The notes under the pieces were generated by a model. That model was given only the letters and a program-made list of their open reading frames with translations. It did no database searches and had not been told where the DNA came from. Source: Verrucomicrobiota bacterium (lineage in GTDB: Bacteria; Verrucomicrobiota; Verrucomicrobiia; Methylacidiphilales; JBCCWR01). From it: a stretch of 64,000 nt of DNA. The stretch covers positions 925 to 64,924 of the forward strand of contig JBCCXA010000009.1 of the NCBI GenBank assembly GCA_039192515.1, read 5' to 3'. Positions 1,948 through 28,579 of this stretch are shown here, piece after piece. Positions within the stretch are counted from its first letter, which is position 1; the number at the start of each line of letters is the position of its first letter. The position numbers and the translations under genes are program-made.

Positions 1948-2718
1948 CTAATTCGCAGGCATTAATGTCTCCACATGGTGGAGCAATTGAGTAATAGTAT
2001 GAGCAAGTATTGGTGCGGGGAGGATATGAGGTTGGTTTTTGAGTATGGTTATGTCAAATGAACCATCAGCGTAGTCTTTCCATTTTTTGATATCTTCCAC
2101 TTCAAGAAGAGTATCTGAATCTGAAGCGGTTACGAAAATAGGGCAGGTTAATTTTTCAACTTTAGTACGTTGGTAGTTTTCACAGTTGCGAAAGTCACTT
2201 CGTAATAGAGGCTCGACGAGTGACATGGTTTCTTCATCCTCGATAATCGCTTGGGGGAGGCCTCCAAGTTTGGCGACAGCCTTGCGAAAGGCCGTAGTGT
2301 CAAGGTGAGCAAGCTTTTCGGAGAGGGGTTGATGAGGTGGCCGAGAGGCTAAAGGGAGAAAAGCAAGTGGCAAAGTCATTTGTAGGGATTGGAGACGGTT
2401 GATAATTTCATAACCAAGCAAAGCACCCATGCTGTAGCCTAATATCATAAAAGGCTGGTCCATATAAGGCATTAGTTCTTTCGTTAATTGGTTAGCGAGA
2501 CCTTCAAGAGATTGAGGAATGGGTTCTTTGGCACGACCCTCTCGCCCAGGATAACAAACTGGGCAGATGCTATATCCAGGAGAATCGAGGTTCATCAAGG
2601 GGTAAAAAATGCTGGCTCCACCACCTGCAGGTGGGAGGCAAAATAAACGCACACTTGTTTGTGGGAGAAGGCGTCCCATACGGTAGATAAGTACAACATT
2701 GCTATTTGGTGTGGTCAT
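1948..2718 (-). CDS. Stand-alone (type II-like) thioesterase
   Basis: LFCLPPAGGG, nucleophile motif GYSMG, LLRSDF, C-terminal His. Last gene of the NRPS operon. Confidence 0.85.
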   Translation of the reverse strand: MTTPNSNVVLIYRMGRLLPQTSVRLFCLPPAGGGASIFYPLMNLDSPGYSICPVCYPGREGRAKEPIPQSLEGLANQLTKELMPYMDQPFMILGYSMGALLGYEIINRLQSLQMTLPLAFLPLASRPPHQPLSEKLAHLDTTAFRKAVAKLGGLPQAIIEDEETMSLVEPLLRSDFRNCENYQRTKVEKLTCPIFVTASDSDTLLEVEDIKKWKDYADGSFDITILKNQPHILPAPILAHTITQLLHHVETLMPAN

Positions 2719-2745
2719 AAGCCATTGTCGGAATTTCTATGTCCC

Positions 2746-5700
2746 TTATATTTCAATTTCAATATGATCTTCGGATTTCTCGGACAGGTTACTCGAAATG
2801 AGTAGTGCATCAATGTGATTGGCTAAGTCTAAAAGGATAGGGCACTCGAAATGGACTCGAAGGGGCAATTCGACATCGAATTCTTTTCGTAGGCGGGTAT
2901 TGGCACGAGTAGCAGAGAGGGAATGGCCTCCTAGTTCGAAGAAATGAGCATTGGCTCCGATAGTTTCAATATTGAGCATTTCACTCCAAATTTTAGCGAT
3001 GGTTTCTTGAGTAGAATTTTCTAAGGGTTGGAATTCTTGTTTGCTTGAAATAGGATCTGGAAGGGCTTTGTGATCTATTTTACCGTTTGTGGTAAGAGGA
3101 AATTTAGATAGTACTACCCATCTATGAGGAATCATGGCTTCCGTTAAGTGAGCTTTGAGGTAGCCTTCAAAGTGTGCTCTTGGATTCTCGGCAATACTAA
3201 TAGATTTGTCTTCTAAGACAAGATAAGCAACTAGTTCTCTTGATGAAGGGAGTTGTGAGACATGTGATTGTTTTACAGATGGGTGCTCGTTGAGGGGGTA
3301 TTCAATTTCTGCGAGTTCAATACGTTGACCGCGAATTTTGATTTGATGGTCATTTCGGCCTAAAAACTCAATTGTTCCATCGGCAGCATAACGAGCGAGG
3401 TCTCCAGTGCGGTAAAGAACTTCAGAGGAGGAAGGTGTATTTTGCTTATAGTATGGATTGGGGATAAAGCGTTCTGCTGTTAGGTCAGCTCTTTGAGCAT
3501 AGCCACGCGCTAAGCCGATGCCACCAATATAGAGTTCGCCTTCGACTCCTGTAGGAAGCTCATTTAGGTCTTGATCGAGGATATGAATGCTTGTATTAGC
3601 AATAGGCTTGCCTATGGGCACCTGCGTCATAGCCTGCCCTTGGTCACAAGACCAATGGGTGACATCGATGGCCGCCTCGGTAGGGCCATAAAGGTTTTGC
3701 AAGGAGGTGTTGGGCAAGAGTTCTTTGCATTTGGCGACAGTAGAGGGATTCAACTTCTCACCACTGCAAATGATGAGACGCAGGCAGGTACACTTGACGA
3801 CTTCGGATATTTCTAAAAGCACTTCGAGCATTGGAGGTACAAAATGAAGTACGGTGATTTTTTCTTTTTGAATCAATTCGACTAAGGCTTGACCGTCTTT
3901 GTGTTGCTCTGGTTCCGCTAGTACTAAGGTTGCACCTGTCATGATAGGCCAGAAAAATTCCCAAACAGACACATCAAAGCCAACAGGGGTTTTCTGCAAA
4001 ACACGGTCAGAAGAGGTAAGTGAGTATTGTTCTTGCATCCATAGCAAACGGTTGGCAAGCGCTTGATGCGTATTAATCACCCCCTTTGGTTTGCCTGTAG
4101 AGCCGGAGGTATAAATGAGATAGAGTGCTTGGTCAGGATTTGGATTACTCGGAATGTGTGGGATGGAGAGTGTTTTCTCTAATTCCTTTTCGTTTGCCCA
4201 ATCGATCACTCTGCAGTTTGTTTTGAGCTCTTGTAGGTTTTGTCTTTGATCTGTAACTATGGCAACGGGCGTACTTTCCTCTAACAAGCTTTGTAGACGT
4301 GCTTTCGGGTAAGAAGGGTCTAATGGGAAGTAAACGGCATTGGCTTTGAGAATAGCCAAGAGAGTGATAGGTAGTTCTAGGGAGCGTTCTAGATAGACAG
4401 CAACGGGTTGTTCAGGTCCTGCTCCAGTTTTTTTGAGTAGTGCAGCAAGCTGTGATGCTTTTTCATGAATTTCTTTGTAGTTAAGGTTTATTCCTCTGAA
4501 GCGCAGTGCAGTCATTGCAGATTCAGCAAATTGTTCAATGGGTTCAGTAATTGAGAGGGCGTGCTCTTTCCAATTTTGTTCAGTTGCATTCCATGATTGA
4601 ACTATTTTTCGTTCTTCCTGTGTATAGAGGGTAATGGATGAGAGTGGTTGATCAGGGTTGCAGAGAATTTGTTGAAGGATTTCATTGAGATGTGAAAAGA
4701 GGTTATGAATCATTGACTGAGAAAAGCGAGGTTCCTGATACTTTGCTTTGATGGTAAGGGTATCATTTTCGATGGCTAATAAGGTCATTGGAAAGTGTGT
4801 CCATTCATCGAATTCAGTACCATCTAGTCTAAGATTATCTTGTTTTTCGTTACTGCCAGCGGGAAGGGGATAGCTTTCTAGCACAAATAGCCAATCGAAG
4901 AGTGGGTTACCTTGATTGGTCCAAGACTGGATATCACGCAGAGCAACATATTCATAGGAGGAAGCGTCAGCCTGGTGTTTCTGGAGGTCTTTTAGCCACG
5001 TGATGATGGGAGCTTGTGGTAGCAGTGAAAGAGAGACGGGAAGGGTATTAATGAAAAGGCCGACCATTTTCGTAGAATCAGGTAAATTACTAGGCCGTCC
5101 AGAAACAGTATGTCCTAATGTCACATTTCGGGAGTCTTGATATCGACCAAGAAGAATACCTATGATACCGAGTAAAAGGGTGTGTAGGGTAACCTGGTGT
5201 GTTTGTGTCCATTGACGAATAGCATTACTCTGTTCGGAAGAAAAGACAAACGACTCTTCGCCAAATTTTTTAGCATTTTCTTGGTGAGAACTAGAGGAAA
5301 ATGATTCTGCAACCAAGGATTCGGTCCAGAATTTTTCGGCCTGTTCAGCATTTTGTTTGAGTAGCCAGGCAATGTAGTCTTTGTAGCGGCTGCGAGAAGC
5401 TTGGATAGGTGATACTGTTAGACCTTTAGCAAGTGCGAAGTAGTCAGTGAGAACTTCTTGTAAGACTTGTCCAGCTGACCACCCATCTAAAATGAGGTGG
5501 TGATAACACCAGACTAATTTAAAGGAAGAGTCAGAGAGACGGATTAAATGAAATCTGGTTAATGGAGCAGATTGTAGATTGAAACCTTCACTTTGATTAG
5601 CTGCTTGCAAGGCCTTTAGTTTTTTATCTTGTTGCTTAGGACTATCTGACCAGTCTAGTTCGATCCACTGTAATGAAACTTCATGATAGACGACTTGGAA

Positions 5701-5919
5701 TGGTTCATCACGCTGCTCCCATTGAAAACCTGTGCGTAGGATTTCATGCCGATGTAAAGCTCTTTCCCAGGATTGCTTAAGGATTTGCGTGTCGAGATTT
5801 CCTGACAAAGAAAGAACAATTTGGGGAATGTAGATTCCTTTTTCAGGAGCCAGTAGTGAGTGGAATAAAAGCCCTTGCTGTGTTGAGGATAATGGGTAGA
5901 TGTCTGCGATATTTGGCAT
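2746..5919 (-). CDS. NRPS, C(DCL-type)-A(Ser)-PCP
   Basis: IYPLSSTQQGLLFH and HHLILDGWS (DCL-like). A-domain cores YTSGSTGKPKG and YGPTE. Specificity code read by eye is DVWHISLIDK (Ser-type). PCP GGHSL. No TE or R domain; ends EDHIEIEI. Confidence 0.92.
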   Translation of the reverse strand: MPNIADIYPLSSTQQGLLFHSLLAPEKGIYIPQIVLSLSGNLDTQILKQSWERALHRHEILRTGFQWEQRDEPFQVVYHEVSLQWIELDWSDSPKQQDKKLKALQAANQSEGFNLQSAPLTRFHLIRLSDSSFKLVWCYHHLILDGWSAGQVLQEVLTDYFALAKGLTVSPIQASRSRYKDYIAWLLKQNAEQAEKFWTESLVAESFSSSSHQENAKKFGEESFVFSSEQSNAIRQWTQTHQVTLHTLLLGIIGILLGRYQDSRNVTLGHTVSGRPSNLPDSTKMVGLFINTLPVSLSLLPQAPIITWLKDLQKHQADASSYEYVALRDIQSWTNQGNPLFDWLFVLESYPLPAGSNEKQDNLRLDGTEFDEWTHFPMTLLAIENDTLTIKAKYQEPRFSQSMIHNLFSHLNEILQQILCNPDQPLSSITLYTQEERKIVQSWNATEQNWKEHALSITEPIEQFAESAMTALRFRGINLNYKEIHEKASQLAALLKKTGAGPEQPVAVYLERSLELPITLLAILKANAVYFPLDPSYPKARLQSLLEESTPVAIVTDQRQNLQELKTNCRVIDWANEKELEKTLSIPHIPSNPNPDQALYLIYTSGSTGKPKGVINTHQALANRLLWMQEQYSLTSSDRVLQKTPVGFDVSVWEFFWPIMTGATLVLAEPEQHKDGQALVELIQKEKITVLHFVPPMLEVLLEISEVVKCTCLRLIICSGEKLNPSTVAKCKELLPNTSLQNLYGPTEAAIDVTHWSCDQGQAMTQVPIGKPIANTSIHILDQDLNELPTGVEGELYIGGIGLARGYAQRADLTAERFIPNPYYKQNTPSSSEVLYRTGDLARYAADGTIEFLGRNDHQIKIRGQRIELAEIEYPLNEHPSVKQSHVSQLPSSRELVAYLVLEDKSISIAENPRAHFEGYLKAHLTEAMIPHRWVVLSKFPLTTNGKIDHKALPDPISSKQEFQPLENSTQETIAKIWSEMLNIETIGANAHFFELGGHSLSATRANTRLRKEFDVELPLRVHFECPILLDLANHIDALLISSNLSEKSEDHIEIEI

Positions 5920-5934
5920 GATTATAAAGACTTG

Positions 5935-6642
5935 TTAGAATTCAAGGTTGGGATGGTTAATGTGAAGGGTATGTGTTTTGGCAGATGCTTCACAAAATTT
6001 TGTGAGTAGGCTCAAAATAAGCTCAGTACCTTTTTTCGCATTTGATGCAGCAGAGTCACCTAGGCAGTCGACGTTCATGATGATTTTAGAAGTGTCCGGA
6101 GAAATGAGAGTTTGACAGGAATTTCGCCAATTCCAACGTCGGCACATGACCTCGTTGCCTACTACATAAATGAGTTCTTCTGGCTCTGGAGATTCTTGTT
6201 TGGCATCTTTGCCCAACGGTAAAAAGGATTCCTGTCCAGTTGCTTTTCTTAGCTGCAAAGCATCGCCATATGATTGTGCACGTTCGACATCATCTCCTCC
6301 AACAGGAATTTGTAATCTAAGAGAGGCTATATTCATAATAGCAACAACTTTCGAGATAAAAGGGAGTTGAACCTCAAGTTTTTGAACCCTTTTGAGCAAA
6401 TTTTTGTGGGCAGGAGGAAATTTATTCGGGTTTGATCCGAATTGGCGATGAACTTTATCCCAAGATTGCACACTGGAAAGGTCATTGGGTGTGCTTAAGC
6501 TTTTGACTATAGCCTCTGCTTCTCTTAGCAGCTCAGTTAGCTCAGCACTTTCGCCTTGATTGTTGATTCCTTCTGCAATCACGATTCCTCGGTGAAAATG
6601 CGGTGCTAATTCGAATACTTCTGGTTTTAATTCTATTTTCAT
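5935..6642 (-). CDS. Stand-alone B3/B4 (PheRS editing-like) domain protein
   Basis: WDKVHRQFGSNPNKFPPAHKNLLKR, ISKVVAIMNIASL..QIPVGGDD, ELIY and VMCRRWNWR match the stand-alone B3/4 family pattern. Confidence 0.8.
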   Translation of the reverse strand: MKIELKPEVFELAPHFHRGIVIAEGINNQGESAELTELLREAEAIVKSLSTPNDLSSVQSWDKVHRQFGSNPNKFPPAHKNLLKRVQKLEVQLPFISKVVAIMNIASLRLQIPVGGDDVERAQSYGDALQLRKATGQESFLPLGKDAKQESPEPEELIYVVGNEVMCRRWNWRNSCQTLISPDTSKIIMNVDCLGDSAASNAKKGTELILSLLTKFCEASAKTHTLHINHPNLEF

Positions 6643-6660
6643 TAATTTTAAATTGCTTAT

Positions 6661-9600
6661 CTAGAGATCTTTCAGGAGCTGGTCAAGTTCACCGGGTTTG
6701 AAATCCATAAGAGAAAAATCAGATTCGCTGTAACCGGATCCTGATTGAGGATTGATGCAGAAATCTGTGAGTTCTTTAATCTCTTTTTCAAGTCTTTCCA
6801 CAAGGGTTTGGATGGTTTTGCTCTGATGAAGGCTTGGATTGTACATCCAATAAATTTTTAAAGTTTTCTCTGAAATAATTGCGTTAATGTCGAAGAAAAC
6901 ATCACGTTTATCCTCCGGATGGCGAGCCTTACCAGAAGATTCAGTTGCTCTTCCGAAAAAGGAAGAATTATTTAGGAGTTGATCGGTCTGGCCTAGATAA
7001 TTAAAGCGAATAGATGGCAAACTAGATTTAGCGTAACCTCTTAAAACGCCATAGCTTAGCCCTTCATCAGGAAGCTGGTGAAATGCTTCTTTCACACTTT
7101 TTAATGAATCATCTAAAGTCTGATTAGTATTTGTTGGAAAGGATACAGGGAAGAGGCTAGTCAGCCAACCTACGGTTCGTGAAAGGTTAAGGTTGGAGTC
7201 TCCTTGTTGGCGCCCATGGCCTTCTAATTGGATGCCTAAGGAGTGATGCTTAGTCCAGGAGGTAACTGTCCGGGCAAGTGCAGCCAAAAGAAGTTCGTCT
7301 ACTTTGATTTTATAGTTTTTAGGAACTTCATTGAGTAGTTTCGCCGTTGCATCCTCGTTTATAATAAGGGAAGCTGTTTCTGCTTCACCCATGAAGATCT
7401 TGCCTGATGGGTCATCGACGGGTAAAGGTGATTGCAATGAGTTTTCTTCAATTTGTTTCCAAGTTTTTTCTGTTCCTTTGAATGCACGTCGGTTTAAGTC
7501 TTCCACCCATTTTGAGACTGTTGAAGAAGGAGGCATGAGTTCCGCGCTGCCAATTTTACCGATTTGAGCATAGAAGTTCTGAAGATCAAAGAGTAGAATG
7601 CGCCAGGAAATACCATCGATAAGTAAGTGATGGCAGACAATGAGAAGGCGGCGGCAAGGTGACTTGGTATTTGCATTTAGTTCAAAATAAACAAGGTGCC
7701 ATAGAGGACCGTTTGTGAGGTTAAAACCCGATTGTATAGAAGCAGCAACCTCTTCTATTTTTTTTTGTGGTTCATCTGTTGTTTCAACAATTTTTGTGAA
7801 TGGTGCTTTTTTAGGAATTGGAGTGTAAGTTTGTTTCCAACTACCATTTGTTTTAGTGTATATTGATCGGAGGGCGGGATGTTGGCGGTAGAGGGTATGT
7901 GCTGCTTGTTCCAATTGGTCGATATTAAGAGGCTCAAGAATACTGAGCAGAATAGATTGATTCCAGTGATTAGGATGATTTAAGGGAAGTTTGAAGAACC
8001 ATTCCTGGATAGGTGTTAAGGGCACCACGATTTCTTGATCTTCTGGGAGATGTTCCTGAGTGTGATTCTGACCAACCTGTGCTACGGTTGCAAGACCTTC
8101 GATAGTTGGATGTTGGAAGAGGTCTCGCGGAGTAAAGCTAATACCTTCTTGTTGAGCTTTAGCAATGACTTGTAAGATAAGAATGGAATCTCCACCTCGT
8201 TGGAAAAAATTATCTTTTATACCAATCTTTTCTACTCCAAGAACAGTTTTCCAAATAGCTAGTAGCTGTGTTTCGCAGTGATTTCTTGGAGAGTAGATTC
8301 GCGCACTTGTCAAATTCTCTAGGTCAGGAAGAGCGCCACGATCGATCTTACCATTAGAAGTTAGAGGGAGTTTTTTAATGGCACGAATAGCTGAGGGGAT
8401 TATCTGTTGAGGCAGTTGCTCCGATAAAAATTGTATTAGCTTATCTTCTGATATATCACTTTCAACAAAAGCGACGAGCTGGTTTTTGCGAAGGACAACA
8501 CAAGCATCTTTGATACCCTTGTGACTGCGAAGGACGGACTCAATCTCTCCTGGTTCGATACGGAAACCTTTGAATTGAAATTGCTCATCATACCTTCCCA
8601 AGTATTCAAGTATTCCATCTTGGCGGAGTAATGCCTGGTCACCCGTCCGATACATAATAGCTCCGACTGATGGGTTTGAAGCGAATGGGTTGGGTAGAAA
8701 TTTCTCTTTGGTTAATTCCTGTTGATTCCAGTAACCCTGAGCAACACCGCTCCCAGAAATATATAATTCTCCAGCGATGCCAATAGGCTGTAGATTTAAG
8801 CTTTCATTGAGAACATAAAGTTGAGTGTTGGCGATTGGTAAGCCTATGGGAATATTCTCATAGGTGAGGTTTTTTTCTTGGACCTCATAAATACAACAAC
8901 CCACAACCGTTTCTGTAGGACCATACTCATTGAAAATTCGAACTTGGGGGTAGTTCTCGCGCCAGAATTTGACATGTCCTGCGGTCAATGCTTCGCCACC
9001 TACAACTATGGCTTTGGGCAGTTGATCAGTAGCTAAATCTTTTGGGAAGATAGGTTCTAAAGCAGATAGGTGAGCAGGCGTTAGTTTGACTACACTAGGG
9101 CCAGTTTGCATCACTTCTGATAGTGCTAAGATCACATTCTCTTCAGGAAGCAAATGAACGGCTTTGCCTGTGAGTAGGGGTGCTAGAAGGCTAGTAATGG
9201 TTGCATCGAATCCGATGGAGCTTTGGACCGGTGACCCCCAACCTTCTGTATATGGATAGCTTTCCAAAGCGTGGTGGAGGTAGTGCATGAGTCCTTCATG
9301 AGAAACAGTAACTCCTTTGGGTTTTCCAGTTGATCCAGATGTATAAAGAATATAACAAGAGAGGTTATTTCTCAAAGCCGGAAGAGGAAGCTCGTTCTTA
9401 GTAAGAGGTAGTGCAGCTAACGAATCTAAGACCAATGTGCATCCAGCATTCTCAGTCATGTAGTCTTGCCTAGCCTTTGGGAGCTGAGGATCTATAGGAA
9501 CGTAGATGCCACCAATTTTCATAACGGCAATTACGGCGATGACTAGATCGGGAGTTCGAGGTAATTTAAGCCCCACGGTATTTCCGGATTCTATTCCTTT

Positions 9601-17300: not shown

Positions 17301-17740
17301 AGAATTTCTTGAACTGGTTCACCTTTAATTGAAATAAAACGGGTTCGTAGTATTTCATGTCGTTCTATGAGTGTGTTTAGACTCTCTTCTAGAATTTCTA
17401 GATCTAAAGTACCTTGCAGCTCTAGAGCAAAGGGGACATTATAGGTCCAGGATTCAGGTTGCATTTCTTGCAGAAACCAGAGTCTTTGCTGCGAAAATGA
17501 GAGTGGAATTTTCTGTGGGCGAGGGTCACAACGCTCAATTTGAGCTGTTTTCGGCGTGTCTCTGGGAGCCGATAAAAAGGAAATAATTTCGGCTTTTTGC
17601 TGAGAAATTTGCTCTTTAAACTCATTAATAATCTTGGCAGAACCGCTGATTTTCAATTTGCCTTTAACGACCTGTAGGTTAATACCCCGATTTTGTAAGT
17701 CTGCTAAAAATGAAGTAATATTGGAGCTTTTAGCTTTCAA
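14327..17740 (-). CDS. NRPS, N-terminal docking domain-C(LCL)-A-PCP, substrate unclear
   Basis: LSFSQQRLWFL, HHIITDGWS, YTSGSVGKPKG, YGPTE, GGHSL. Code read as DGPTLGAVNK. The N-terminus ITSFLADLQNRGINLQVVKGKLKISG resembles a beta-hairpin (TubC-N type) docking domain. TTG start. Confidence 0.92.
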   Translation of the reverse strand: MKAKSSNITSFLADLQNRGINLQVVKGKLKISGSAKIINEFKEQISQQKAEIISFLSAPRDTPKTAQIERCDPRPQKIPLSFSQQRLWFLQEMQPESWTYNVPFALELQGTLDLEILEESLNTLIERHEILRTRFISIKGEPVQEILSRAIIDFIFDDHRDQPSPESHIKEEIEIMATTPFSLDQAPLFRASAYQIKDEKFVILFCFHHIITDGWSFEVLIKELVQAYRSHLLGTKPEFTPLPIQYADFAIWQHKSLDDAGLKNQLDYWKKQLSGELPTLDLPTDYPRQRMQTSNGDMVHFNIPDKITQQLREIGQHQSASLFMVLLTAYKLLLNRYTGQNDLLVGCPIANRHRYEVQSLIGFFVNSIVIRTQISPTASFIDTLKQVRSTTLSAYENQDLPFEKLVEAIQPERDMSRSPIFEVKFQLERASTSELQLPGLSLKPLAQEQISAKHDLGLDLYETDEGLVGGFEYNSDLFKRETVDRMSNHFLGLLKSIIQNSTSPISGLSIFTKTEEQAYLQSWNSHDKPFKDSLCYHQLFEAQVERTPEAIALVFDNGSSTELNYRKLNERANQLAHFLIEKGIKPESVVGIAVERSFEMVISLLAVLKAGAAYLPLDRTYPEERLRFLLSDSGSSALITTGDFTIEDSVEKTLTRINLDTISLSSYSSKNPKTNVQPDNLAYLIYTSGSVGKPKGTLIQHRGLVNLTEDKIRVCEITSDDCILQFFSFSFDGSVPEFVMTLAAGAKLLLAPAENLLPGPSLRDLINKHQVSHITITPSALNALPAHKYPSLKMVLVGGEAPPQELIEHWSQGRKFINAYGPTETSVNASMVTCGNGAPLTPTVTPSANKQLYVLNDSLEICPPGVVGELHIGGIGLARGYHHRPSLTAERFIPNPFPPVKGRNYNIPLLYKSGDLASYLSDGRIKILGRTDHQTKIRGYRIELQEIETVLETHPDIKVGLVRVKTSDKGNKRLVAYAIPHKKQHESDEEIKLYLSQKMPKFMIPSAFIWLDELPLTPNGKLDEKALPEPNDNRVTVRTPPQTLTEIKLADIFTATLEIDEIGVEENFFELGGHSLLVTQLIAKVVETFGVELTVIDLFDAPTVSTLSKRIDRKQQIASLTPADQENNHEGREQFTF

Positions 17741-17859
17741 TGGTGTAGAAGGTTGGGGTTGACTGGTGGTTTTTAGGCGAGTATTTTTAGGGTATCAGCC
17801 TTGTCAATTGCAAGGCTTTGAGTAGTTGATTTAAATTCTCTCTTTGCGTCTATTTATTC

Positions 17860-19890
17860 ATGAAAAGTATAAATGAAACATTATATGATCACTTTCGCAA
17901 GCTTTTTGAGATTGAGTCTAAATCTAAACAAGAGGCTTTTTTAGTTTACAACTCTAATTATTCGGAAGGGGAATGGGAAAAACAATATGACGTTTTTACC
18001 TACTCGGACCTGTATGAGAGGGTTATGATTATTTCTCAGCACATGAGGGAAAAAAAATTGCATGGGCAGATTTTAATTGCACAGGATACGGGTATCGAAT
18101 TTGTAGCTTCTTTTTTGGCCTGTCTTTTTACTGGAAGGATTGCCGTGCCCATTCCCAAGCCAAAGATGGCAAAAGAGGGGCAGAGGTGGGTGCATGTAGC
18201 AAAGGATGCTGGGGCAGTTGCAGTATTATCCGATATGAAGGCCCAGCAATTTTTCCGACCTCTAAATGGCTTGGAATGTATTTGTACGGCGGAGCTAACC
18301 GAAAAAGCAGAAATGAATCTGGAAAGGCCTCGGCTAGAAGATGTGGCCTTTTTGCAATACACCTCAGGTTCTACAGGGTTGCCAAAGGGAGTCATGGTGA
18401 CGCATGCAAATATCATGCATAATCTATCTGCAATTCAGCAGCGTTTTGGCCATACCGAGGATAGTAAGGGGGTGATATGGCTTCCGCCGCATCACGATAT
18501 GGGCCTTATTGGGGGGATTTTGCAGCCGATTTTTGTTGGCTTTCCTGTGGTATTGATGTCTGCGAGCACCATTGTAAGAGCTCCTTATAAGTGGCTAGAA
18601 GCTATTCATCAATTCAAAGCGACAACCAGCGGGGGGCCTGCCTTCGCCTACCAACTTGCTGCTCAAAGGATAACTCCTGAAAACAAGCAATTACTGGACT
18701 TGTCATCCTGGGAACTAGCATTTGTCGGTGCAGAAACAGTTCGGGCAAATGTTTTGCAAGAATTTGCAACTGCATTTGTAGAGTGTGGTTTCAATCCGAA
18801 AGCTTTTCTACCTTGTTATGGCATGGCGGAGGCTACCTTAATGGTCAGTGCGCCAGAAAAAGGAACGGGTTGGCGCCTAGCTCAAGCGAAGCAGGCGGGA
18901 GAAGTGCCACGAGTTTCTTGTGGGCATGTCTCTGAGGGGATACAGGTATTGATTGTTGACTCAGACAATAAAATCGAGAAAGAGAACGGAGAAATAGGTG
19001 AGATTTGGGTTTCAGGTTCGAGTGTTGCCAGAGGGTATTGGAATAACGAACAAGCGACCCAAGATATCTTTAGAGCAAGTCTGTTTTCGTCGCTAAGCTC
19101 TGAGAACTATCTAAGGACCGGTGATCTTGGCTTTCTCGATCAAAATGAACTAGTGATCTGTGGCAGGCTCAAGGATTTGATCGTGATTCATGGTCAAAAT
19201 TACATACCTACGGACCTTGAGGAGTCTGCAGCAAAAGCGATAGGTCTGAATGCTAGTTCGATCGTAGCATTTGCTATTGAAAATGGGATAGAAGAACAGG
19301 TCGTCATGGTTTATGAAATGCGGCCGAGTCAAAGAAATGGGCGGTCATGGGAAGAAATATCTATGAACGTCTATGATTGTATTCTTAGCGAGTGGGCTTT
19401 AGCAATTGCTTATTGTATAGCTGTGAATCCGGTCAGTTTGCCTCGAACAACTAGTGGTAAATTGCAAAGAAGGCAGTGCTGCCAAAATTTCCAAGAAAAA
19501 AGATTGAGCACTTTGTTTGAGCAGAGTTTTCTTGGAGATGATACCGCGGGCGACTTACTTGATCTTCCTCAGGATCAGGAGTCATTCAACCACTTTGTTT
19601 GTGATCAGTTTGCCAGAGTATTGGGACTAAGTGGGAGTCAACTTGATCACCGTAAGGGCTTTTTTGAAATGGGACTTACTTCCGTGACCGGTATGGAATT
19701 AAAAGCTCGCTTAGAAAGGAGTCTCAAAATGGAGCTCCCTGCCACTCTTATAATTGATTATCCAAATCTTGAGACGCTTCTACTTTATCTAGGGAACCAG
19801 CTATTTGATAAAAGAGAAAAATCTGAAAACTATTTTGAAGTAGTGGACAAGCAACTGGACGAGTTAGAAGCCTTGCTAGATGATTCTTGA
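17860..19890 (+). CDS. Fatty acyl-AMP ligase (FAAL) fused to ACP
   Basis: FLQYTSGSTGLPKGV, WLPPHHDMGLIG, FLPCYGMAEATL, LRTGDLGF, LPRTTSGK. C-terminal ACP FFEMGLTS. Confidence 0.92.
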   Translation: MKSINETLYDHFRKLFEIESKSKQEAFLVYNSNYSEGEWEKQYDVFTYSDLYERVMIISQHMREKKLHGQILIAQDTGIEFVASFLACLFTGRIAVPIPKPKMAKEGQRWVHVAKDAGAVAVLSDMKAQQFFRPLNGLECICTAELTEKAEMNLERPRLEDVAFLQYTSGSTGLPKGVMVTHANIMHNLSAIQQRFGHTEDSKGVIWLPPHHDMGLIGGILQPIFVGFPVVLMSASTIVRAPYKWLEAIHQFKATTSGGPAFAYQLAAQRITPENKQLLDLSSWELAFVGAETVRANVLQEFATAFVECGFNPKAFLPCYGMAEATLMVSAPEKGTGWRLAQAKQAGEVPRVSCGHVSEGIQVLIVDSDNKIEKENGEIGEIWVSGSSVARGYWNNEQATQDIFRASLFSSLSSENYLRTGDLGFLDQNELVICGRLKDLIVIHGQNYIPTDLEESAAKAIGLNASSIVAFAIENGIEEQVVMVYEMRPSQRNGRSWEEISMNVYDCILSEWALAIAYCIAVNPVSLPRTTSGKLQRRQCCQNFQEKRLSTLFEQSFLGDDTAGDLLDLPQDQESFNHFVCDQFARVLGLSGSQLDHRKGFFEMGLTSVTGMELKARLERSLKMELPATLIIDYPNLETLLLYLGNQLFDKREKSENYFEVVDKQLDELEALLDDS

Positions 19891-19892
19891 TC

Positions 19893-22800
19893 ATGAATAA
19901 ACCACAGGAGGTATCTACCCAATATAAAGAACGCTTAGAGCGTGCGATGACACTTATTGAACGACTCAAAGGAAAGCTATCACAACAGAACCAGAGCTCT
20001 GCATCCACTGAGCCAATTGCCATTGTAAGTATGGCATGTCGGTTTCCTGGCAGTGTAGCAGATCCTGAGGGGCTGTGGGAATTGTTAGAAAATGGACGTG
20101 ATGCTATTACGCAAGTGCCTTCGGATCGGTGGGATGCTGAGGAACTATATGATGGAGCTCCGGCTGTTCCGGGAAAAGTCATTAACAAGCAAGGTGGCTT
20201 CATTGATAAAGTAAAGGAATTTGATCCCCTATTCTTTGGAATATCGCCCAAAGAGGCACATACTATGGATCCTCAACAGCGGATATTAATGGAGGTTTCT
20301 TATGAGGCACTTGTCCGCTTAGGTATGAATCCCAAACAAGCTTCAAGTATTGAGGCTGGAGTTTTTGTTGGAGTGAGTGGCACGGACTATGCCAGACATT
20401 TATCTCAGCTTTCAGGAGAGCAAATAGATCCTTATTTAGCTACAGGAAATTCTGCAAGTGTGTTAGCGGGACGCCTTTCTTACGTGCTTAGAATGACGGG
20501 TCCAAGTCTTAGTATAGATACCTCGTGCTCGTCTTCTTTGGTAGCTGTTCATTTGGCTTGCCAGAGTCTTCAGAATCAGGAATGCGAACTTGCTTTAGCC
20601 GGCGGTGTGAATTGCATTCTGACGCCGGAAGTAAGTATCGCCTTTTCTCAGGCTCGGATGCTTTCGCCGAGAGGGCGTTGTCATACCTTTTCAAGTAAGG
20701 CAGATGGTTTTGTGCGAGCAGAAGGTTGTGGGATGGTTGCTCTCAAAAAGCTATCTAAAGCACGAGTTGATGGAGATCAGGTTCTTGGGATTATTCGCGG
20801 TTCGGCTATCAACCAAGACGGAGGGAGTGGGGGTCTTACAGTTCCCAATGGGCACTCCCAACAAAAGCTTATTCAATCTGCTTTAAAGACATCAGGAGCA
20901 TCACCAGAAGATCTTTACTATCTAGAAGCTCATGGCACTGGAACCGAGTTGGGAGACCCCGTCGAGCTGAATGCGTTGAGTGAAGTCTTTAAAGAGAGCC
21001 ATTCTCCAGAACGTCCACTTTTGATTGGGTCAATAAAAACTAATCTTGGGCATATGGAAGCTGCAGCAGGCATAGGGGGGTTGATGAAAGTAGTTCTTTC
21101 TATGCAGCATGGAATGTTACCTAAGCATCTCCATTTTTCGGAACCGACTCCTCATGTAAAATGGGATAAGATTCCAATCAAAGTGACTGACCAAAAAGTG
21201 GAATGGCCTAGAGGGTCTTCTTCTCTAGCGGGAGTGAGTTCTTTCGGTTTTAGTGGCACCAATGCTCATGTTATTTTAGAACGATCAGAGGGCTCTCTAA
21301 AAAATTTAGAGCCAGTTCCTTCTACTTCAAATCATAAAAGAAGGTATTGGGTAGATATACCTAAAAACAAGAAAAGACGCCCATTACTTTCTCATCCCTG
21401 GCTGCAAGAAATGCTTTCTGTGGCACGCATTAACTCGAAGCATCTTGTTGTTTCTCAAAGTCTCTTTCGTGATGATGTTCTGAAACAACACCAAGTTCTT
21501 GGACAAGCTGTTTTTCCAGGGGTTGGTTTTCTCGAATTGCTATCCGCTGCATTCAAACATGTTTATGGATCTAAGAATATTTCCTTAAAGGATGTGAGCT
21601 TTGCTCGGGTACTATCATTGGATTCTGAGATGCCAGTTCAAATTGTTCTCAAGCAAGATACCGCGGAAGTTCTGCAACAAACTGAAACAGGTGAATGGCA
21701 AACATTGTGTGTTACGATGCTAGATCAAAGCTATCAAAAGGTTCACAATTTATCCATAAGTGATTTTCCTAGGTATGAGCTTTCTGAGGTGGCGCCAAGC
21801 CATGTTTATGAGCGGCTAGCAAGCCAAGGGGTTTCTTATGGGGAAGCATGGAAATTAATTGAATCTCTCCAAACAAAAGATGGCTATATTCGGGCTCATA
21901 TTAAGGCTCCTCAAGAGTCAGGAGGCTTTCATTATCACCCGTTTCTATTAGATGCTATTCTACAGACAATGGCTGCTGGCTTCTTGGAGAAGGAAGATGA
22001 TAAATATACCTATATTCCAGAGGGCGTAGGCCAAGTTATCTTTCATGTCGAAAAACTCTGTGGTGAGGTATTTACCGTGTTAGGAAAGATGAAATCTGGA
22101 GAGGGTTGGGTTAGTGCAGATTTTCTTTTGCAAGACGAAGAGGGAGCCGACTTAGTAACTTTCAAAGATATTCGTTTGCGTCCTCTCACTAAAAACTGGA
22201 TTACCAGAGTCAATCGGGCTTCGGTTAAGGATTGGTTTTATTCAGTGGACTGGAAGCTCGATAATATTCCCTCTAGGGAAAAAGGACACACTCCAGAACA
22301 ATTAGCTCGTCAGCTTATGGATGATGCAAAAGAGGCTCTCGAGGTTGAAGAAATCAAACGGTACCGAGAGGGATTACCTAACTTAGAGCGAGCTGCGGCT
22401 CAGCTGGCAGGAATTATTTTATCTAAGGTAGACTCGGAAAAAGTTATTCCGGAACAAAAAGTGCTGTGGAGGCATTTGCATAATAGAGCCCAAACAGAAA
22501 TTTTAGAAACCTCAACGTTTACCGACGAATTGCAGGCTGTCTTCCCGCAGGAAATCAAGCTGATCCAACGTTGCGCAAGTGAAGCTGTTGCCGTGGTGGA
22601 AGGAGACCAGGATCCTATGGAAGTTCTTTTTCCTAAAGGTGATAGCTCCGAATTAACCTGGCTCTACCAAAAATCAGACGCAGCACAACTGCTCAACAAA
22701 CAAATGTGTCTGAGCTTTGCTCAAATACGAAAGGGTCTAGGGCGTCCTCTTAAAATTCTGGAAGTTGGTGGGGGAACCGGCGGAACTACTGCGTTACTTA

Positions 22801-25800
22801 TCGAACTCTTGGGTAAGGATGATGAGTATGTTTTCACGGATGTTTCACCCTTTTTAGTAGACGAAGCCAAACAAAAATTTGGTCATTCAGAACAAATGCT
22901 TTTCAAAACACTCGACCTAAGTCAAAGCCTATTAGAGCAAGGATTTGATAGAAATACGTACGATTTGGTCATCGCGGCGAATGTCTTGCATGCAACTCCT
23001 GACATAGATAGCTCTGTTCGCAAGATTGGAGAACTTCTTTTGACTAACGGATATTTGCTTTTATTAGAGGGAGTTAAACCACTCCTTTGGCTAGATCTTA
23101 TATTCGGTTTGACCAAAGGCTGGTGGTCTTTTAACGACGAGTGGAGAGTCGATTATCCTCTTTTGTCCAGCACTACATGGCATAAGCTCTTTAATAGCAT
23201 GGGTTGGGAATCATCAACGATTACAGTTGGCGATTTGCCTCAAGCCGTCATGGTTGCTCAAAAAAGGGCGGAAAAAAATGAGAAGCTAGTCATATGGGCT
23301 GAGCATCGTCAAGGAGCTGGAACATTTGCCGAGCAAATACAAGCCGGAGTTCGGAACCTGTTGTCGCAGGTTAAAGCATGTCTAAGTGGGAAGCCACCCT
23401 GGCCGCAACTTGTGCTAGTGACTCAGGGTGCCACTGATTTACACGCTTTTCACCCTGAGCAAGCAACTCTATGGGGATTATCAAGAACCATTGAACTGGA
23501 ATTTCCTGGACTACAATGCCTGCGCATCGATCTCGACCCCACGAAAACGCTTGCTGAACAGAGAGATTTAGTCAATCAAGAACTAGAAAACTTGAGTCGA
23601 GGCTCGGTTCGGTTCCGAGATGGAAAACGATATGTAGCAAGGTTGCAACACGCAGAAAAAATAGAGTCTCTAAAAATTCCAGAAACGGATGCTTACGAAC
23701 TGAAATTGGAGAATACGCCAACTCGTTCATTGACCCTTGCTGAAGTTGAGCGAGAAAAACCAATATGTGGTGATATCGAAATTCGTGTGCAGGCCGCTGG
23801 GATCAATTTTATCGATGGGTTAGATATTGCAGGTATGCTTCCTTTCGAAAGAGGTTGGTTGGGAGTTGAATGCGCGGGCGAAGTGGTGTCAGTTGGTGAT
23901 AGTGTCACTGATTTTAAGATAGGTGATAAAGTTATGGCATTGGCTCCACGGGCATTTCGCACTTATGTCAATGTACCATCTGTTCTAGTAGCAAAGTGGC
24001 CAAATAATATTAAGACCGCACAGGCTGCCGCTACATTGCCGGTTAATTTCCTGACAGCCCAGCGCGCTCTTTGCGATATAGCACATTTGAAAAAAGGAGA
24101 GTCTGTTCTTATTCATTCGGGTGCGGGAGGTACAGGGATGGCAGCCATTCAAGTCGCACAACATCTGGGAGCTACGGTTTATGCCACATCGAGCCGTGCT
24201 AAGTGGCCAGTTCTGAAGCGATTAGGCGTTAAGAATATTTTTGATAGCCGCAGTTTAGGCTTTGCTGTGGAAGTAATCAAAGCCACGCAGGGGCAAGGGG
24301 TTCAGGTTGTTCTTAACTCATTAACAGGTGACTATATTGAAAAAGGTCTTTCTATTTTAGCCAAGGATGGACGGTTTATTGAATTAGGAAAGCGAGGCAT
24401 TTGGACCAAGGAACAAATCGGTGAATTTCGATCCGATATTCAGTATCACATTGTGGATTTATTTTCTGAAAGTGAACAACGCATCAAGCTTTGGCGATCT
24501 GAGGGTAAAGGGGATTCTATTTTCAAGGGTTTGCTTCCAGTTCAGGCATTACCAGAAACTTCATTTCCTATTCAAGAGGCTCCTCGAGCTGTAAAGTTTT
24601 TCCAGCGTTCCCGCCATGTGGGAAAGGTAGTGCTAGATTTTGATCGGACCCAAAGTCCGGTTCGTCAAGATGCTTCTTATGTGATTACTGGAGGAGCTGG
24701 AGGGCTGGGGCTTGAAACAGCTCGTTGGTTGGTGGAGCAAGGCGCCAGGCACGTTTTGTTACTAGGCCGAAATATTCCAAAGTCGGATGATCCTAGATTA
24801 CTCATCATAAAAGAAGCCATTGAGAAGAATTGGGTGTGGTTTGAGAGTGCAGATGTTTCTGAGCGTGCTGCAGTTGAGGGAGTCTTGAAGCATGCTCAAG
24901 AACGTGCACCATTGCGCGGTATTTTTCATAGTGCGGGTGTCTTGTCTAATGCCACGATTCAGGAGTTATCTTGGGATGAGGTGAATTATGTTTTTGGTCC
25001 CAAGGTTTGGGGAGGTTGGCATTTGCATGAATTGACAGCTCATCTGGAGCTTGATTTATTTGTTTTGTATTCATCTGCAGCTTCTTTGCTCGGTTCTCCA
25101 GGCCAGGGAAATCATGTCGCAGCAAATGCTTTCCTGGATGCACTGGCGCATCATCGAAGATCACTCGGTTTACCTGCCCAAAGTTTCAATTGGGGAGCTT
25201 GGTCTCAGGTTGGATCGGCAGCCTCTCAGTCAACCCAAATGGAATTGGCAAAACGAGGGATTTCTATGATAGATCCTCAAAGTGGAATTAAATGCCTATC
25301 ACTTGCCCTCCAAAGGCCAGATTGTTGCCAGTTAGGGTTGGTTCGGGTTGACTGGAAAACTTTATTAAAAGCAGGTTTGTCTCTTGATCCATTTTTTGAA
25401 TATTTTGCTCGGTCCATATCAAAAGAAAGGCATGAAAATAAAGCATTAAAAACCGGGAAGGAAGGAGAATGGATTAAAGAATTAAAGAATCTTCCCAGAG
25501 GGCAATGGAGTCATTACCTAAACAAGAAAATTCGAGAAGAATTGGCTCAAGTCATCGGATTACAGGCTGGGGACTTGCCACCGGCTGACGCAGGATTTTT
25601 CGATCTTGGGGTGGATTCATTGATGAGTGTCGATTTAAAAAATCGGTTAGCGTTGTATCTGGCCACTGATATTTCTCCTACGCTTATCTTTCAGCATCCA
25701 ACCATCAGCGCTCTCGCACAAAAACTTACTGAGTTGTTAGAGAATCAAATGAATGTCTTAGGAAAAAACAAAATTCAAAGCAAACAATCGATTGATGTCT

Positions 25801-25916
25801 CTACTCTAAAACTAGATGACGATTCGGAGACAAAACTTTTAGTGTCCGAAGTTTCTGGCAAGGACATTGCCTCTGAGCTCTTAGCTCTTGAAGAGTTATT
25901 AGAGGAGTCCTCATAA
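19893..25916 (+). CDS. Type I PKS module KS-DH-cMT-ER-KR-ACP lacking an AT domain
   Basis: KS: DTSCSSS, HGTGT, KTNLGH. DH: HQVLGQAVFP and LLDAILQ. MT: LEVGGGTGG and ANVLHAT. ER: LIHSGAGGTG. KR: TGGAGGLG. ACP: FDLGVDSL. Only about 40 aa separate the KS end from the DH start, with no GHSxG. Confidence 0.9.
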   Translation: MNKPQEVSTQYKERLERAMTLIERLKGKLSQQNQSSASTEPIAIVSMACRFPGSVADPEGLWELLENGRDAITQVPSDRWDAEELYDGAPAVPGKVINKQGGFIDKVKEFDPLFFGISPKEAHTMDPQQRILMEVSYEALVRLGMNPKQASSIEAGVFVGVSGTDYARHLSQLSGEQIDPYLATGNSASVLAGRLSYVLRMTGPSLSIDTSCSSSLVAVHLACQSLQNQECELALAGGVNCILTPEVSIAFSQARMLSPRGRCHTFSSKADGFVRAEGCGMVALKKLSKARVDGDQVLGIIRGSAINQDGGSGGLTVPNGHSQQKLIQSALKTSGASPEDLYYLEAHGTGTELGDPVELNALSEVFKESHSPERPLLIGSIKTNLGHMEAAAGIGGLMKVVLSMQHGMLPKHLHFSEPTPHVKWDKIPIKVTDQKVEWPRGSSSLAGVSSFGFSGTNAHVILERSEGSLKNLEPVPSTSNHKRRYWVDIPKNKKRRPLLSHPWLQEMLSVARINSKHLVVSQSLFRDDVLKQHQVLGQAVFPGVGFLELLSAAFKHVYGSKNISLKDVSFARVLSLDSEMPVQIVLKQDTAEVLQQTETGEWQTLCVTMLDQSYQKVHNLSISDFPRYELSEVAPSHVYERLASQGVSYGEAWKLIESLQTKDGYIRAHIKAPQESGGFHYHPFLLDAILQTMAAGFLEKEDDKYTYIPEGVGQVIFHVEKLCGEVFTVLGKMKSGEGWVSADFLLQDEEGADLVTFKDIRLRPLTKNWITRVNRASVKDWFYSVDWKLDNIPSREKGHTPEQLARQLMDDAKEALEVEEIKRYREGLPNLERAAAQLAGIILSKVDSEKVIPEQKVLWRHLHNRAQTEILETSTFTDELQAVFPQEIKLIQRCASEAVAVVEGDQDPMEVLFPKGDSSELTWLYQKSDAAQLLNKQMCLSFAQIRKGLGRPLKILEVGGGTGGTTALLIELLGKDDEYVFTDVSPFLVDEAKQKFGHSEQMLFKTLDLSQSLLEQGFDRNTYDLVIAANVLHATPDIDSSVRKIGELLLTNGYLLLLEGVKPLLWLDLIFGLTKGWWSFNDEWRVDYPLLSSTTWHKLFNSMGWESSTITVGDLPQAVMVAQKRAEKNEKLVIWAEHRQGAGTFAEQIQAGVRNLLSQVKACLSGKPPWPQLVLVTQGATDLHAFHPEQATLWGLSRTIELEFPGLQCLRIDLDPTKTLAEQRDLVNQELENLSRGSVRFRDGKRYVARLQHAEKIESLKIPETDAYELKLENTPTRSLTLAEVEREKPICGDIEIRVQAAGINFIDGLDIAGMLPFERGWLGVECAGEVVSVGDSVTDFKIGDKVMALAPRAFRTYVNVPSVLVAKWPNNIKTAQAAATLPVNFLTAQRALCDIAHLKKGESVLIHSGAGGTGMAAIQVAQHLGATVYATSSRAKWPVLKRLGVKNIFDSRSLGFAVEVIKATQGQGVQVVLNSLTGDYIEKGLSILAKDGRFIELGKRGIWTKEQIGEFRSDIQYHIVDLFSESEQRIKLWRSEGKGDSIFKGLLPVQALPETSFPIQEAPRAVKFFQRSRHVGKVVLDFDRTQSPVRQDASYVITGGAGGLGLETARWLVEQGARHVLLLGRNIPKSDDPRLLIIKEAIEKNWVWFESADVSERAAVEGVLKHAQERAPLRGIFHSAGVLSNATIQELSWDEVNYVFGPKVWGGWHLHELTAHLELDLFVLYSSAASLLGSPGQGNHVAANAFLDALAHHRRSLGLPAQSFNWGAWSQVGSAASQSTQMELAKRGISMIDPQSGIKCLSLALQRPDCCQLGLVRVDWKTLLKAGLSLDPFFEYFARSISKERHENKALKTGKEGEWIKELKNLPRGQWSHYLNKKIREELAQVIGLQAGDLPPADAGFFDLGVDSLMSVDLKNRLALYLATDISPTLIFQHPTISALAQKLTELLENQMNVLGKNKIQSKQSIDVSTLKLDDDSETKLLVSEVSGKDIASELLALEELLEESS

Positions 25917-28498: not shown

Positions 28499-28533
28499 GA
28501 GTAGGATTTATGTATCGATCGGAATGTAAAGTT

Positions 28534-28552: not shown

Positions 28553-28579
28553 TATTAAGGCCTTAATAATCCTTTCTTC

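Follow-up and report, generated by a model that had tools for sequence, protein, structure and literature searches.

A compact orphan gene cluster of an uncultured Verrucomicrobiota bacterium with the predicted layout of a fatty acid-primed polyketide-peptide assembly line and an embedded B3/4-domain gene

Here we report the analysis of a gene cluster at positions 1948-25916 of a 64,000-nucleotide stretch of DNA (hereafter the window) from contig JBCCXA010000009.1 of the Verrucomicrobiota genome assembly GCA_039192515.1. The cluster encodes a fatty acyl-AMP ligase fused to an acyl carrier protein (FAAL-ACP), one polyketide synthase (PKS) module without an acyltransferase (AT) domain, three nonribosomal peptide synthetases (NRPSs) with four modules, a stand-alone thioesterase (TE), and a single-domain protein of the B3/4 family. 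We consider it probable, at roughly 0.7, that these genes encode an orphan hybrid line that is functional and assembles a small lipopeptide, because nearly all catalytic motifs are intact, the adenylation codes are readable, an epimerization domain is paired with a DCL-type condensation domain, the docking elements match, the genes are spaced as in operons, and the layout is conserved in orthologous clusters. The predicted product is 2-methylacyl-X-Gly-D-Asn-Ser, where X is the residue selected by module 1.

Almost no nonribosomal peptides have been characterized from Verrucomicrobiota. A first-pass annotation made from the letters of the sequence had called such products scarce, and our literature search likewise gave only the trans-AT polyketides of verrucomicrobial symbionts, palmerolide and lasonolide. 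At ~25 kb the cluster is small enough to be synthesized and expressed, and it would thus give practical access to the natural products of a lineage that has not been cultured. Its points of interest, namely the AT-less module, a histidine in the ketoreductase active site, an odd adenylation code in module 1, and the putative B3/4 editor, are predictions from sequence. They raise three questions that have only lately become testable: how cis-type PKS modules are loaded after AT loss, possibly by moonlighting of FabD, whether a ketoreductase with His for Tyr is active, which bears on product prediction for the whole cyanobacterial-type methylating clade, and whether stand-alone B3/4 editors confer resistance on producers of secondary metabolites. 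If all of these unusual readings fail, one more orphan lipopeptide cluster remains.

Gene organization and the predicted assembly line

Domains were assigned by a Pfam scan of the window proteins, with E-values from 1e-9 to 1e-265, far beyond chance. The cluster comprises two divergently transcribed operons with a total length of ~25 kb and 7-8 genes. The plus-strand operon contains two genes. The first encodes FAAL-ACP (17860..19890; 676 aa; Pfam AMP-binding, AMP-dom_DIP2-like, and PP-binding), with an adenylation domain at ~17980-19512 and an ACP at ~19597-19788; its best NCBIfam matches, scoring 346 and 339 bits, are to families of fatty acyl-AMP ligases and fall below the curated full-length cut-offs. 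The second encodes the PKS (19893..25916, with an alternative start at 19887; ~2,007 aa), in which Pfam places ketosynthase (KS, ~20010-21296), dehydratase (DH, ~21393-22193), C-methyltransferase (cMT, ~22722-23210), enoylreductase (ER, ~23769-24635), ketoreductase (KR, ~24672-25205), and ACP (~25527-25721) domains ahead of a C-terminal docking tail.

The minus-strand operon, according to the open reading frame (ORF) listing and Pfam, contains five genes encoding NRPS1, NRPS2, the B3/4 protein, NRPS3, and TE. NRPS1 (14327..17740) is module 1, with TubC_N (~17570-17719), condensation (C, ~16187-17515), adenylation (A, ~14678-16123), and peptidyl carrier protein (PCP, ~14408-14596) domains. NRPS2 (6661..14355) was assigned by Pfam and motifs as C-A-PCP-C-A-PCP-E and combines module 2 (C ~12886-14202, A ~11416-12831, PCP ~11146-11340) with module 3 (C ~9778-11088, A ~8347-9723, a GGDSI-type PCP at ~8071-8268, and an epimerization domain, E, at ~6664-8028). 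The B3/4 gene (5935..6642; 235 aa; Pfam B3_4, E 9e-17) is followed by NRPS3 (2746..5919), which is module 4 with C (~4606-5907), A (~3055-4515), and PCP (~2812-3003) domains by Pfam, and by TE (1948..2718), a stand-alone alpha/beta-hydrolase of 256 aa (Pfam Thioesterase, E 2e-30). The FAAL-ACP, PKS module, four NRPS modules, and single E domain of the first-pass annotation were all recovered in place by Pfam and motif searches, and its remark that no transporter lies within 1948-25916 agrees with the ORF list and Pfam; it missed the B3/4 gene at 6642-5935 inside the NRPS operon.

All reading frames are open (~24 kb), and every catalytic motif that we checked is intact save one KR residue. The KS retains its Cys-His-His motifs (DTSCSSS, EAHGTGT, NLGH), the DH its HxxxGxxxxP and DxxxQ motifs (HQVLGQAVFP and DAILQ), the cMT its S-adenosylmethionine motif EVGGGTGG together with VLHAT, the ER its NADPH motif HSGAGGTG, and the ACP of the PKS reads GVDSL. 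The modifiable serine is present in six of six carrier proteins, the four PCPs among them. The catalytic His of the C domains (HHxxxD or xHxxxD) is found in 4/4, and the A3, A5, and A10 motifs are present. The third C-like domain of NRPS2 bears the epimerase motifs HHLLIDGISW, LEGHGR, RTVGWLTSLFP, and FNYLGQ. The locus thus holds the parts by which a FAAL-primed hybrid PKS-NRPS lipopeptide line is recognized: a FAAL with its carrier, the KS and ACP active-site residues, and C-A-PCP modules with a release enzyme. A candidate 4'-phosphopantetheinyl transferase (PPTase) frame of Sfp size is located on contig C4 of the same genome.

Three junctions fix the order of the proteins. The PKS ends in ...ELLALEELLEESS, with a tail, ELLALEELLEE, that is matched by the TubC_N beta-hairpin dock of NRPS1. 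The NRPS2 ORF opens at TTG 14445 and has its probable start at Met 14355, which gives a 29-nt overlap of the NRPS1 and NRPS2 genes identical to that of the orthologous pair at locus L035. Finally, the E domain of NRPS2 is preceded by the GGDSI-type PCP and followed by a COM-donor-like tail, and NRPS3 begins with MPNIADIYPLSSTQQGLLFH, a typical start of a DCL-type C domain, the kind that follows an E domain. Taken together, these junctions give the order FAAL-ACP, PKS, NRPS1, NRPS2, NRPS3, TE. The minus-strand genes are spaced by 15-27 bp or overlap, and the intergenic gaps across the cluster are 15-120 bp, so that there is no room for additional genes in 1948-25916. The two operons are separated by 119 bp (17741..17859) with back-to-back sigma-70-like sites, TTGACA-16-AATACT on the minus strand (17807-17780; 10 of 12 positions) and TTGACT-17-TATTTT on the plus strand (17759-17787), both of which are matches to consensus. 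Rfam and tRNA scans found no RNA family or tRNA in the cluster region.

The four A domains were aligned with MAFFT to read their specificity (Stachelhaus) codes, and the register of the alignment is validated by the match of three of the four codes to textbook ones. Module 2 has the textbook Gly code (DILQLGLIWK), module 3 the textbook Asn code (DATKVGEVGK), and module 4 a Ser-type code (DVWHISLIDK); Asn is predicted to be D-configured because the E domain follows module 3. The code of module 1, DGPTLGAVNK, has no assignment. Literature searches for DGPTLGAVNK, DGPTLGGVNK, and DGPTLG gave no match. The unusual pocket is nevertheless conserved, since the L035 ortholog of NRPS1, 57.5% identical, reads DGPTLGGVNK. 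We compared this domain by blastp and code extraction with 590 A domains found in the 150 top-ranking representative NRPSs; codes of the Phe/Tyr type (e.g., DAWIIAAVCK, DASLIAAVCK) occur in 14 of its 20 nearest domains and in 10% of all 590. The beta-hydroxy-Tyr code is DASTLGAICK, with which the module 1 code shares T278, L299, G301, and A322 and from which it differs at G236, P239, and N331. We give about even odds to X being aromatic (Tyr- or Phe-like), possibly a non-proteinogenic residue, which is the most likely class on these comparisons. The alpha-methyl-acyl tetrapeptide with Gly-D-Asn-Ser and one unassigned residue proposed by the first-pass annotation is therefore supported by module order, A codes, and the E domain, and remains a prediction.

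In the proposed pathway, the FAAL would adenylate a free fatty acid and load it onto the fused ACP. The AT-less PKS would receive malonate in trans, most likely from FabD, extend the chain by two carbons, C-methylate it, and presumably reduce it fully to a 2-methyl-alkanoyl thioester. The docking tail would pass this chain to the TubC_N dock of NRPS1, and the four modules would add X, Gly, Asn, and Ser, with epimerization of Asn to D-Asn. NRPS3 terminates in a PCP, and the thioesterase, with its GYSMG serine motif, is encoded by a gene of its own and not as an NRPS domain; for this reason we infer that the stand-alone enzyme releases the chain, most likely as the linear acid N-(2-methylacyl)-X-Gly-D-Asn-Ser. 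As accessories, the B3/4 protein would hydrolyze mischarged tRNA, and a membrane-anchored DUF3500 protein encoded next to the cluster could act on the product outside the cytoplasm, as a tailoring or processing enzyme.

Acylated peptides with a D-Asn formed by an A(Asn)-PCP-E module also occur in the N-acyl-D-Asn prodrug systems, such as those of colibactin (ClbN/ClbP) and xenocoumacin (XcnA/XcnG). We rejected a prodrug reading of this cluster: here D-Asn is residue 3, not directly acylated, and followed only by Ser; a gene for a ClbP-like peptidase is absent from the window; and the relatives have D-Ala at this place.

Several observations weigh against the assembly line as proposed. The Tyr site of the KR is occupied by His, with GQGNHVAAN aligned to GQPGYAAAN of the AmphB KR (His codon near 25116). 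Instead of FabD, the cis-ATs of three other PKS loci of the genome (on contigs C2, C21, and C32) could load the PKS. The thioesterase resembles type II (editing) thioesterases, so that another release route is possible. The 20 domains nearest to that of module 1, on which its assignment rests, are 44-48% identical to it, and no gene was recognized in the cluster that would supply a non-proteinogenic amino acid. Lastly, the relatives carry an RND efflux set at the position of the 18-bp gap between NRPS2 and the B3/4 gene, and this pump is missing here.

The acyltransferase-less polyketide module

No Acyl_transf_1 (PF00698) match was found in the PKS by the Pfam scan. The KS ends near residue 465 (GTNAHVILE) and the DH begins near residue 503, so that ~35 residues join them. 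The KS-to-DH distance is ~70 aa in the window PKS and likewise in its full-length homologues P0002, P0004, and P0005 (51-54% identity). In a second tier (P0006, P0009, P0010, P0012, P0013, P0035) the AT is also absent, and the KS-AT linker and the post-AT YPFQR motif are kept, giving ~190 aa. The AT-bearing cyanobacterial homologues, 35-38% identical to the window PKS, have a KS-to-DH distance of ~500 aa. One PKS clade thus displays a graded loss of the AT, from ~500 through ~190 to ~70 aa (window 21260-21400; P0022, P0051, and P0117 were also compared). On this comparison the absence of the AT appears to be ancestral to the PKS family and not a recent deletion. The in-line ER, the DH-cMT-ER-KR order, and descent from AT-bearing homologues point to a cis-AT origin. 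Elsewhere in the phylum, the complete 5,957,605-bp genome of a member of the same class contains a 2,450-aa frame (L021, G189:C1:2474949-2477306) that aligns with the window PKS from KS to DH without an AT insert, at 39% identity over residues 13-790; AT-less modules of the cis type may therefore occur in other Verrucomicrobiota.

The genome, which is 95.8% complete, contains six AT matches, five within large PKS frames (C2, C21, C32) and one in FabD, encoded in a fabD-fabG-acpP-fabF operon. No dedicated trans-AT was found in the cluster or in the rest of this genome, and FabD is its only free-standing AT; by this elimination, and by analogy with two known systems, the housekeeping FabD is the likely malonyl loader of the PKS. 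Both systems are NRPS-PKS hybrids: FabD serves the AT-less PipC of pseudotetraivprolide, as demonstrated biochemically (PMC12828459), and the AT-less BrnF of barnesin A, as shown by heterologous production (PMC13096860). They share with the window an AT-less module, the absence of a dedicated trans-AT from the genome, and FabD as the sole free-standing AT; however, their reductive sets are simpler, whereas the window module keeps the DH-cMT-ER-KR order of cis-AT type and an in-line ER. A frame combining AT and PPTase domains on contig C21 was considered as a dedicated trans-AT and rejected, as it belongs to a locus resembling polyunsaturated fatty acid (PUFA) synthases. This locus (L047, C21:445-13406) is a PUFA-synthase-like pair of a 2,668-aa NMO-KS-AT-ACP-KR protein and a 1,653-aa KS-AT-DH protein with a C-terminal 4'-phosphopantetheinyl transferase.

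The outcome of the reductive steps depends on the KR. If the loop were incomplete, the acyl chain would stay beta-keto or beta-hydroxy with its alpha-methyl group, and the DH and ER would be idle. Such an outcome is suggested by the replacement of Tyr relative to AmphB, by the retention of Tyr in the other KRs of the same genome (C2, C21), and by an LDD stereo-motif that reads LSN. However, the His is common to 12 of 12 homologues inspected, including the AT-bearing cyanobacterial KS-AT-DH-cMT-ER-KR modules, and the KR Lys, Ser, and Asn are kept together with the DH, ER, and cMT motifs, which would be unexpected for a dead loop. Modules of the PuwB type, moreover, give saturated methyl-branched chains (PMC4219810), although PuwB itself may have either Tyr or His at the KR site. 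We therefore regard an incomplete loop as unlikely. The clade-wide His and the intact DH and ER argue for a functional loop, by inference only, and full reduction is not assured. If this KR clade is active, His must replace the catalytic Tyr.

An AT could also come from a partner pathway. Orthologous clusters were found only on metagenome contigs (loci L007-L009 and L035-L042), where the best homologues of the cluster proteins are 49-65% identical. An NRPS of ~2,375-2,406 aa with the domains C-A-PCP-C-A-Ox-PCP, where Ox is an oxidase, lies convergent to the AT-less PKS in 4 of 4 relatives (L007, L008, L009, L042), and behind it a KS-AT-KR PKS is found in L007 and L042; this position is cut off or unannotated in L008 and L009. 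In the window genome, contig C32 encodes orthologs of the oxidase-containing NRPS, 51-56% identical, preceded by a cis-AT PKS that has 38% identity to its L042 counterpart, and carries an MbtH gene. The cluster might thus be half of a larger pathway, working jointly with a cis-AT PKS and an oxidase-containing NRPS that supply the AT or contribute to a joint product. Against this, the two loci are on separate contigs, and the window contig goes on for 79 kb after the PKS, with PEP-CTERM and TonB genes that are unrelated; the intervening genes vary among the relatives; and the window line is self-contained from loading to TE, with its docking elements matched. We find a joint pathway improbable. 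The C32 locus itself extends over ~3270-40249 and is a second, larger NRPS/PKS locus, with its MbtH gene at C32:24169-24309.

The B3/4-domain protein

The B3/4 gene sits between the NRPS2 and NRPS3 genes, with gaps of 18 and 15 bp. It is kept in every orthologous cluster spanning its position, after NRPS2 or the pump, and its nearest homologues (58-65% identity) are all encoded directly upstream of an NRPS3 ortholog. It matches two proteins in the PDB, CtdA, 9f7e_A (E 4e-17), and a second B3/4 protein, 9mkl_A (E 3e-18), over residues 5-186. CtdA is a canavanyl-tRNA deacylase (PMC10018355, PMC12449066). Among the important residues of CtdA, N105, G116, and C166 have conserved counterparts (N104, G115/G116, C167), and that of Q173 is N174; according to the CtdA paper, Q173 of the Salmonella enterica protein is not strictly conserved. 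A next tier of more than 100 clusters of homologues (<=50% identity) has the invariant core MN...PVGGDD...MCRRWNWRN, and the two members of this tier whose neighborhoods were inspected are in unrelated non-biosynthetic contexts. The NRPS-linked subgroup is distinguished near the specificity region by S for G at 175, C for H at 176, and L for R at 179, and by a 3-aa insertion. This pattern fits a housekeeping-type editor that was recruited into the cluster.

The characterized relatives of the B3/4 protein all hydrolyze aminoacyl-tRNA esters (PMC10018355; PMC12449066), and tRNA deacylases encoded in clusters for non-canonical amino acids, BesG and FthB, are established self-resistance genes (PMC13149037). 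By analogy with these, the B3/4 protein most likely protects translation in the producer by deacylating tRNA mischarged with an amino acid analogue of the pathway. It resembles the CtdA family in its ~235-aa single B3/4 domain and in three key residues, and its position within the cluster matches the logic of self-protection by AlaX- or FthB-type deacylases. The difference is that the resistance-guided study mined AlaX and not the B3/4 family (PMC13149037), and our search of the literature found no description of a B3/4-family deacylase inside an NRPS cluster. Canavanine is an unlikely substrate. The B3/B4 domain of PheRS edits Tyr and meta-Tyr, and for this reason a B3/4 editor and an aromatic analogue at module 1 would form a coherent pair. 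We tentatively suggest, without rating it likely, that this may be the first B3/4-type deacylase recruited to an NRPS cluster for self-protection, with module 1 using an aromatic non-proteinogenic residue. If true, the deacylase gene would signal that module 1 has such a building block and of what chemical class it is, and discovery directed by tRNA deacylases would gain the B3/4 family besides AlaX and FthB.

Alternatively, the B3/4 protein could act on the assembly line itself, hydrolyzing mis-loaded aminoacyl-S-PCP or releasing the chain instead of acting on tRNA. Its place between NRPS2 and NRPS3 with 15-18-bp gaps, the constant position directly upstream of NRPS3 in the relatives, the lack of an evident gene for a non-proteinogenic amino acid, and the subgroup-specific substitutions and insertion would all suit such a role. 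However, the characterized relatives act on aminoacyl-tRNA esters, the invariant core is common to more than 100 homologue clusters, and a thioesterase is already there for carrier-protein editing. We thus consider action on the carrier proteins quite unlikely and favor a tRNA deacylase.

The large family of stand-alone B3/4 proteins (~238 aa, with the invariant motif MCRRWNWRNGH) has a conserved neighborhood in the three loci sampled for two of its members (L048-L050; one annotated as Desulfobacterales), in which a 7TMR-DISM histidine kinase and a sigma-54 response regulator precede the gene and PilZ, LemA, and M48 peptidase genes follow it.

Distribution, cluster relatives, and comparison with known pathways

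The RpoB of the genome is 91% identical to a protein labeled 'MAG: Verrucomicrobiota bacterium', 84-85% identical to those of Methylacidiphilales metagenome-assembled genomes (MAGs), and 80% identical to those of Verrucomicrobia bacterium LW23 and strain GAS474. Judged by this marker, the genome is that of an uncultured member of Verrucomicrobiota near Methylacidiphilales, which bears out the verrucomicrobial origin assumed by the first-pass annotation and does not place it in a well-studied producer lineage. A PKS ortholog was absent from the same-genus genome, 39 further genomes of the same order, and 400 species-representative genomes across the phylum, and B3/4 homologues were absent from 103 other genomes of the order (E <= 1e-20) and from the 400 phylum genomes (E <= 1e-15). 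In the contigs of named genomes, the PKS search gave only generic actinobacterial and Saprospiraceae PKSs with 40-52% identity and no orthologous cluster, and a near-identical characterized cluster was likewise absent among the named homologues. The cluster is thus an orphan, uncharacterized variant of the FAAL-PKS-NRPS lipopeptide kind. Its patchy distribution argues for acquisition at some time. Recent horizontal transfer, as judged from composition, was not supported: the GC content is ameliorated (42.9% in the cluster and 42.4% in the genome), and the tetranucleotide distance of the cluster, in the top 4% of windows, may be explained by the amino acid composition of megasynthases.

The relatives share a recurrent order over several contigs, with FAAL-PKS divergent from NRPS1-NRPS2 and B3/4-NRPS3-TE-DUF3500 following. 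FAAL and PKS genes are carried by L007/L035, L008, L009, and L042 and are divergent from NRPS1 in L007/L035, L008, and L042; NRPS2 is visible in L007/L035 among these. NRPS2, the RND efflux set, B3/4, and NRPS3 occur in L036-L041, followed by TE in L036-L040 and by DUF3500 in L038-L040. The RND set (e.g., L038:4313-9989) consists of OEP (456 aa), MFP (387 aa), and RND (1036 aa) proteins, whose nearest paralogs in the window genome, on contig C57, are only 27-38% identical. FAAL-ACP is fused to the PKS in the orthologs P0004 and L008 and encoded by a separate gene in the window. The NRPS3 orthologs retain the Ser code. Module 3 of the orthologous NRPS2 (L035:13368-20954, L038:1-4316) has the Ala code DLFNNALTYK in place of the Asn code at 8347-9723, which we read as a natural exchange of A domains within an otherwise collinear family. 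Compared with its relatives, the window cluster lacks the pump, has DUF3500 in inverted orientation, FAAL-ACP separate from the PKS, and Asn where they have Ala, and has the oxidase-NRPS locus elsewhere; the description of the cluster as compact was apt, as it belongs to a recurrent family of which it is a trimmed version. These relatives provide a natural series (module 3 for Ala or Asn, RND pump present or absent, FAAL fused or separate) that is useful for assignment of function.

Such differences could also describe a decaying remnant that lacks its AT, efflux pump, and partner cluster and makes no product. The absence of the AT, of the RND pump present in L036-L041, and of the cluster from the same-genus genome and all relatives searched, as well as the inverted DUF3500, are in agreement with decay. 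However, ~24 kb of open frames, motifs intact save the KR Tyr, tight operon spacing, the apparently ancestral AT-lessness, and a GC content matching the genome are not, and we assign decay little probability. Even less probable, and rejected as unsupported, is the reading of the product as a siderophore of amphiphilic type or as another ligand imported via TonB: genes for TonB and a TonB-dependent receptor are found 1.8 kb downstream of the PKS (27719-30991), which may be coincidence, and a TonB_C gene lies between two PKS genes in L008 (L008:9477-9929), but two PEP-CTERM genes intervene in the window, L035-L041 are without such linkage, and enzymes forming hydroxamate, catechol, or hydroxy-aspartate and matching A codes are absent.

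Among known pathways, the functional lipopeptide line that we favor most resembles that of the puwainaphycins. In Cylindrospermum alatosporum, PuwC is the FAAL, PuwD the ACP, and PuwB the PKS with AT, DH, MT, ER, and KR domains, and together they make an acyl chain with an alpha-methyl group (PMC4219810). The window likewise combines a FAAL-loaded ACP with a single PKS module of methylating and reductive domains that would pass a branched acyl chain to an NRPS, it has a similar bidirectional promoter region, here predicted from consensus matches, and cyanobacterial modules of the PuwB architecture are the nearest AT-bearing homologues of its PKS and share the KR His. The analogy drawn by the first-pass annotation is thus supported, with the caveats that PuwB has its own AT and the window module has none, and that the KR Tyr site of the window module reads His. 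The puwainaphycin pathway differs further: its second PKS, which has aminotransferase and oxygenase domains, leads to a beta-amino acid, its products are cyclic decapeptides, and its TE is in-line, whereas the window line has only four modules, a discrete TE, and no aminotransferase; neither Pfam nor the ORFs revealed an aminotransferase domain or gene between 700 and 27000. Palmerolide (10.1101/2021.05.05.442870) and lasonolide A (PMC9600693) are made by pathways of Verrucomicrobiota symbionts of invertebrates, which resemble the window in their uncultured verrucomicrobial producers and PKS modules without cis AT, but they are large multi-module trans-AT PKSs with dedicated trans-ATs, in contrast to this small, FAAL-primed, NRPS-dominated line.

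The DUF3500 gene (796..1875 on the plus strand, in an ORF from 700 with a likely start Met at 796; Pfam DUF3500, E 2e-75) abuts the cluster, convergent to the thioesterase gene on the opposite strand, and its product has an N-terminal membrane anchor. Its ortholog, 54% identical, overlaps the TE stop by 4 bp and is translationally coupled to it in L038, L039, and L040; the TE ortholog in L038 is also 54% identical. A fungal DUF3500 protein has been proposed as a ring-cleavage enzyme (PMC10832562), and the window protein matches one solved family member in the PDB, 9x86_A 'Amc20' (E 1e-26). An AlphaFold2 model from a three-sequence alignment had a mean pLDDT of 43, too poor for use. The DUF3500 protein is a possible tailoring enzyme or oxygenase acting in the periplasm. 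The first-pass annotation had listed no tailoring oxygenase; the conserved membership of DUF3500, as of B3/4, in the gene set, the proposed ring cleavage, and the Amc20 match make that statement unsafe.

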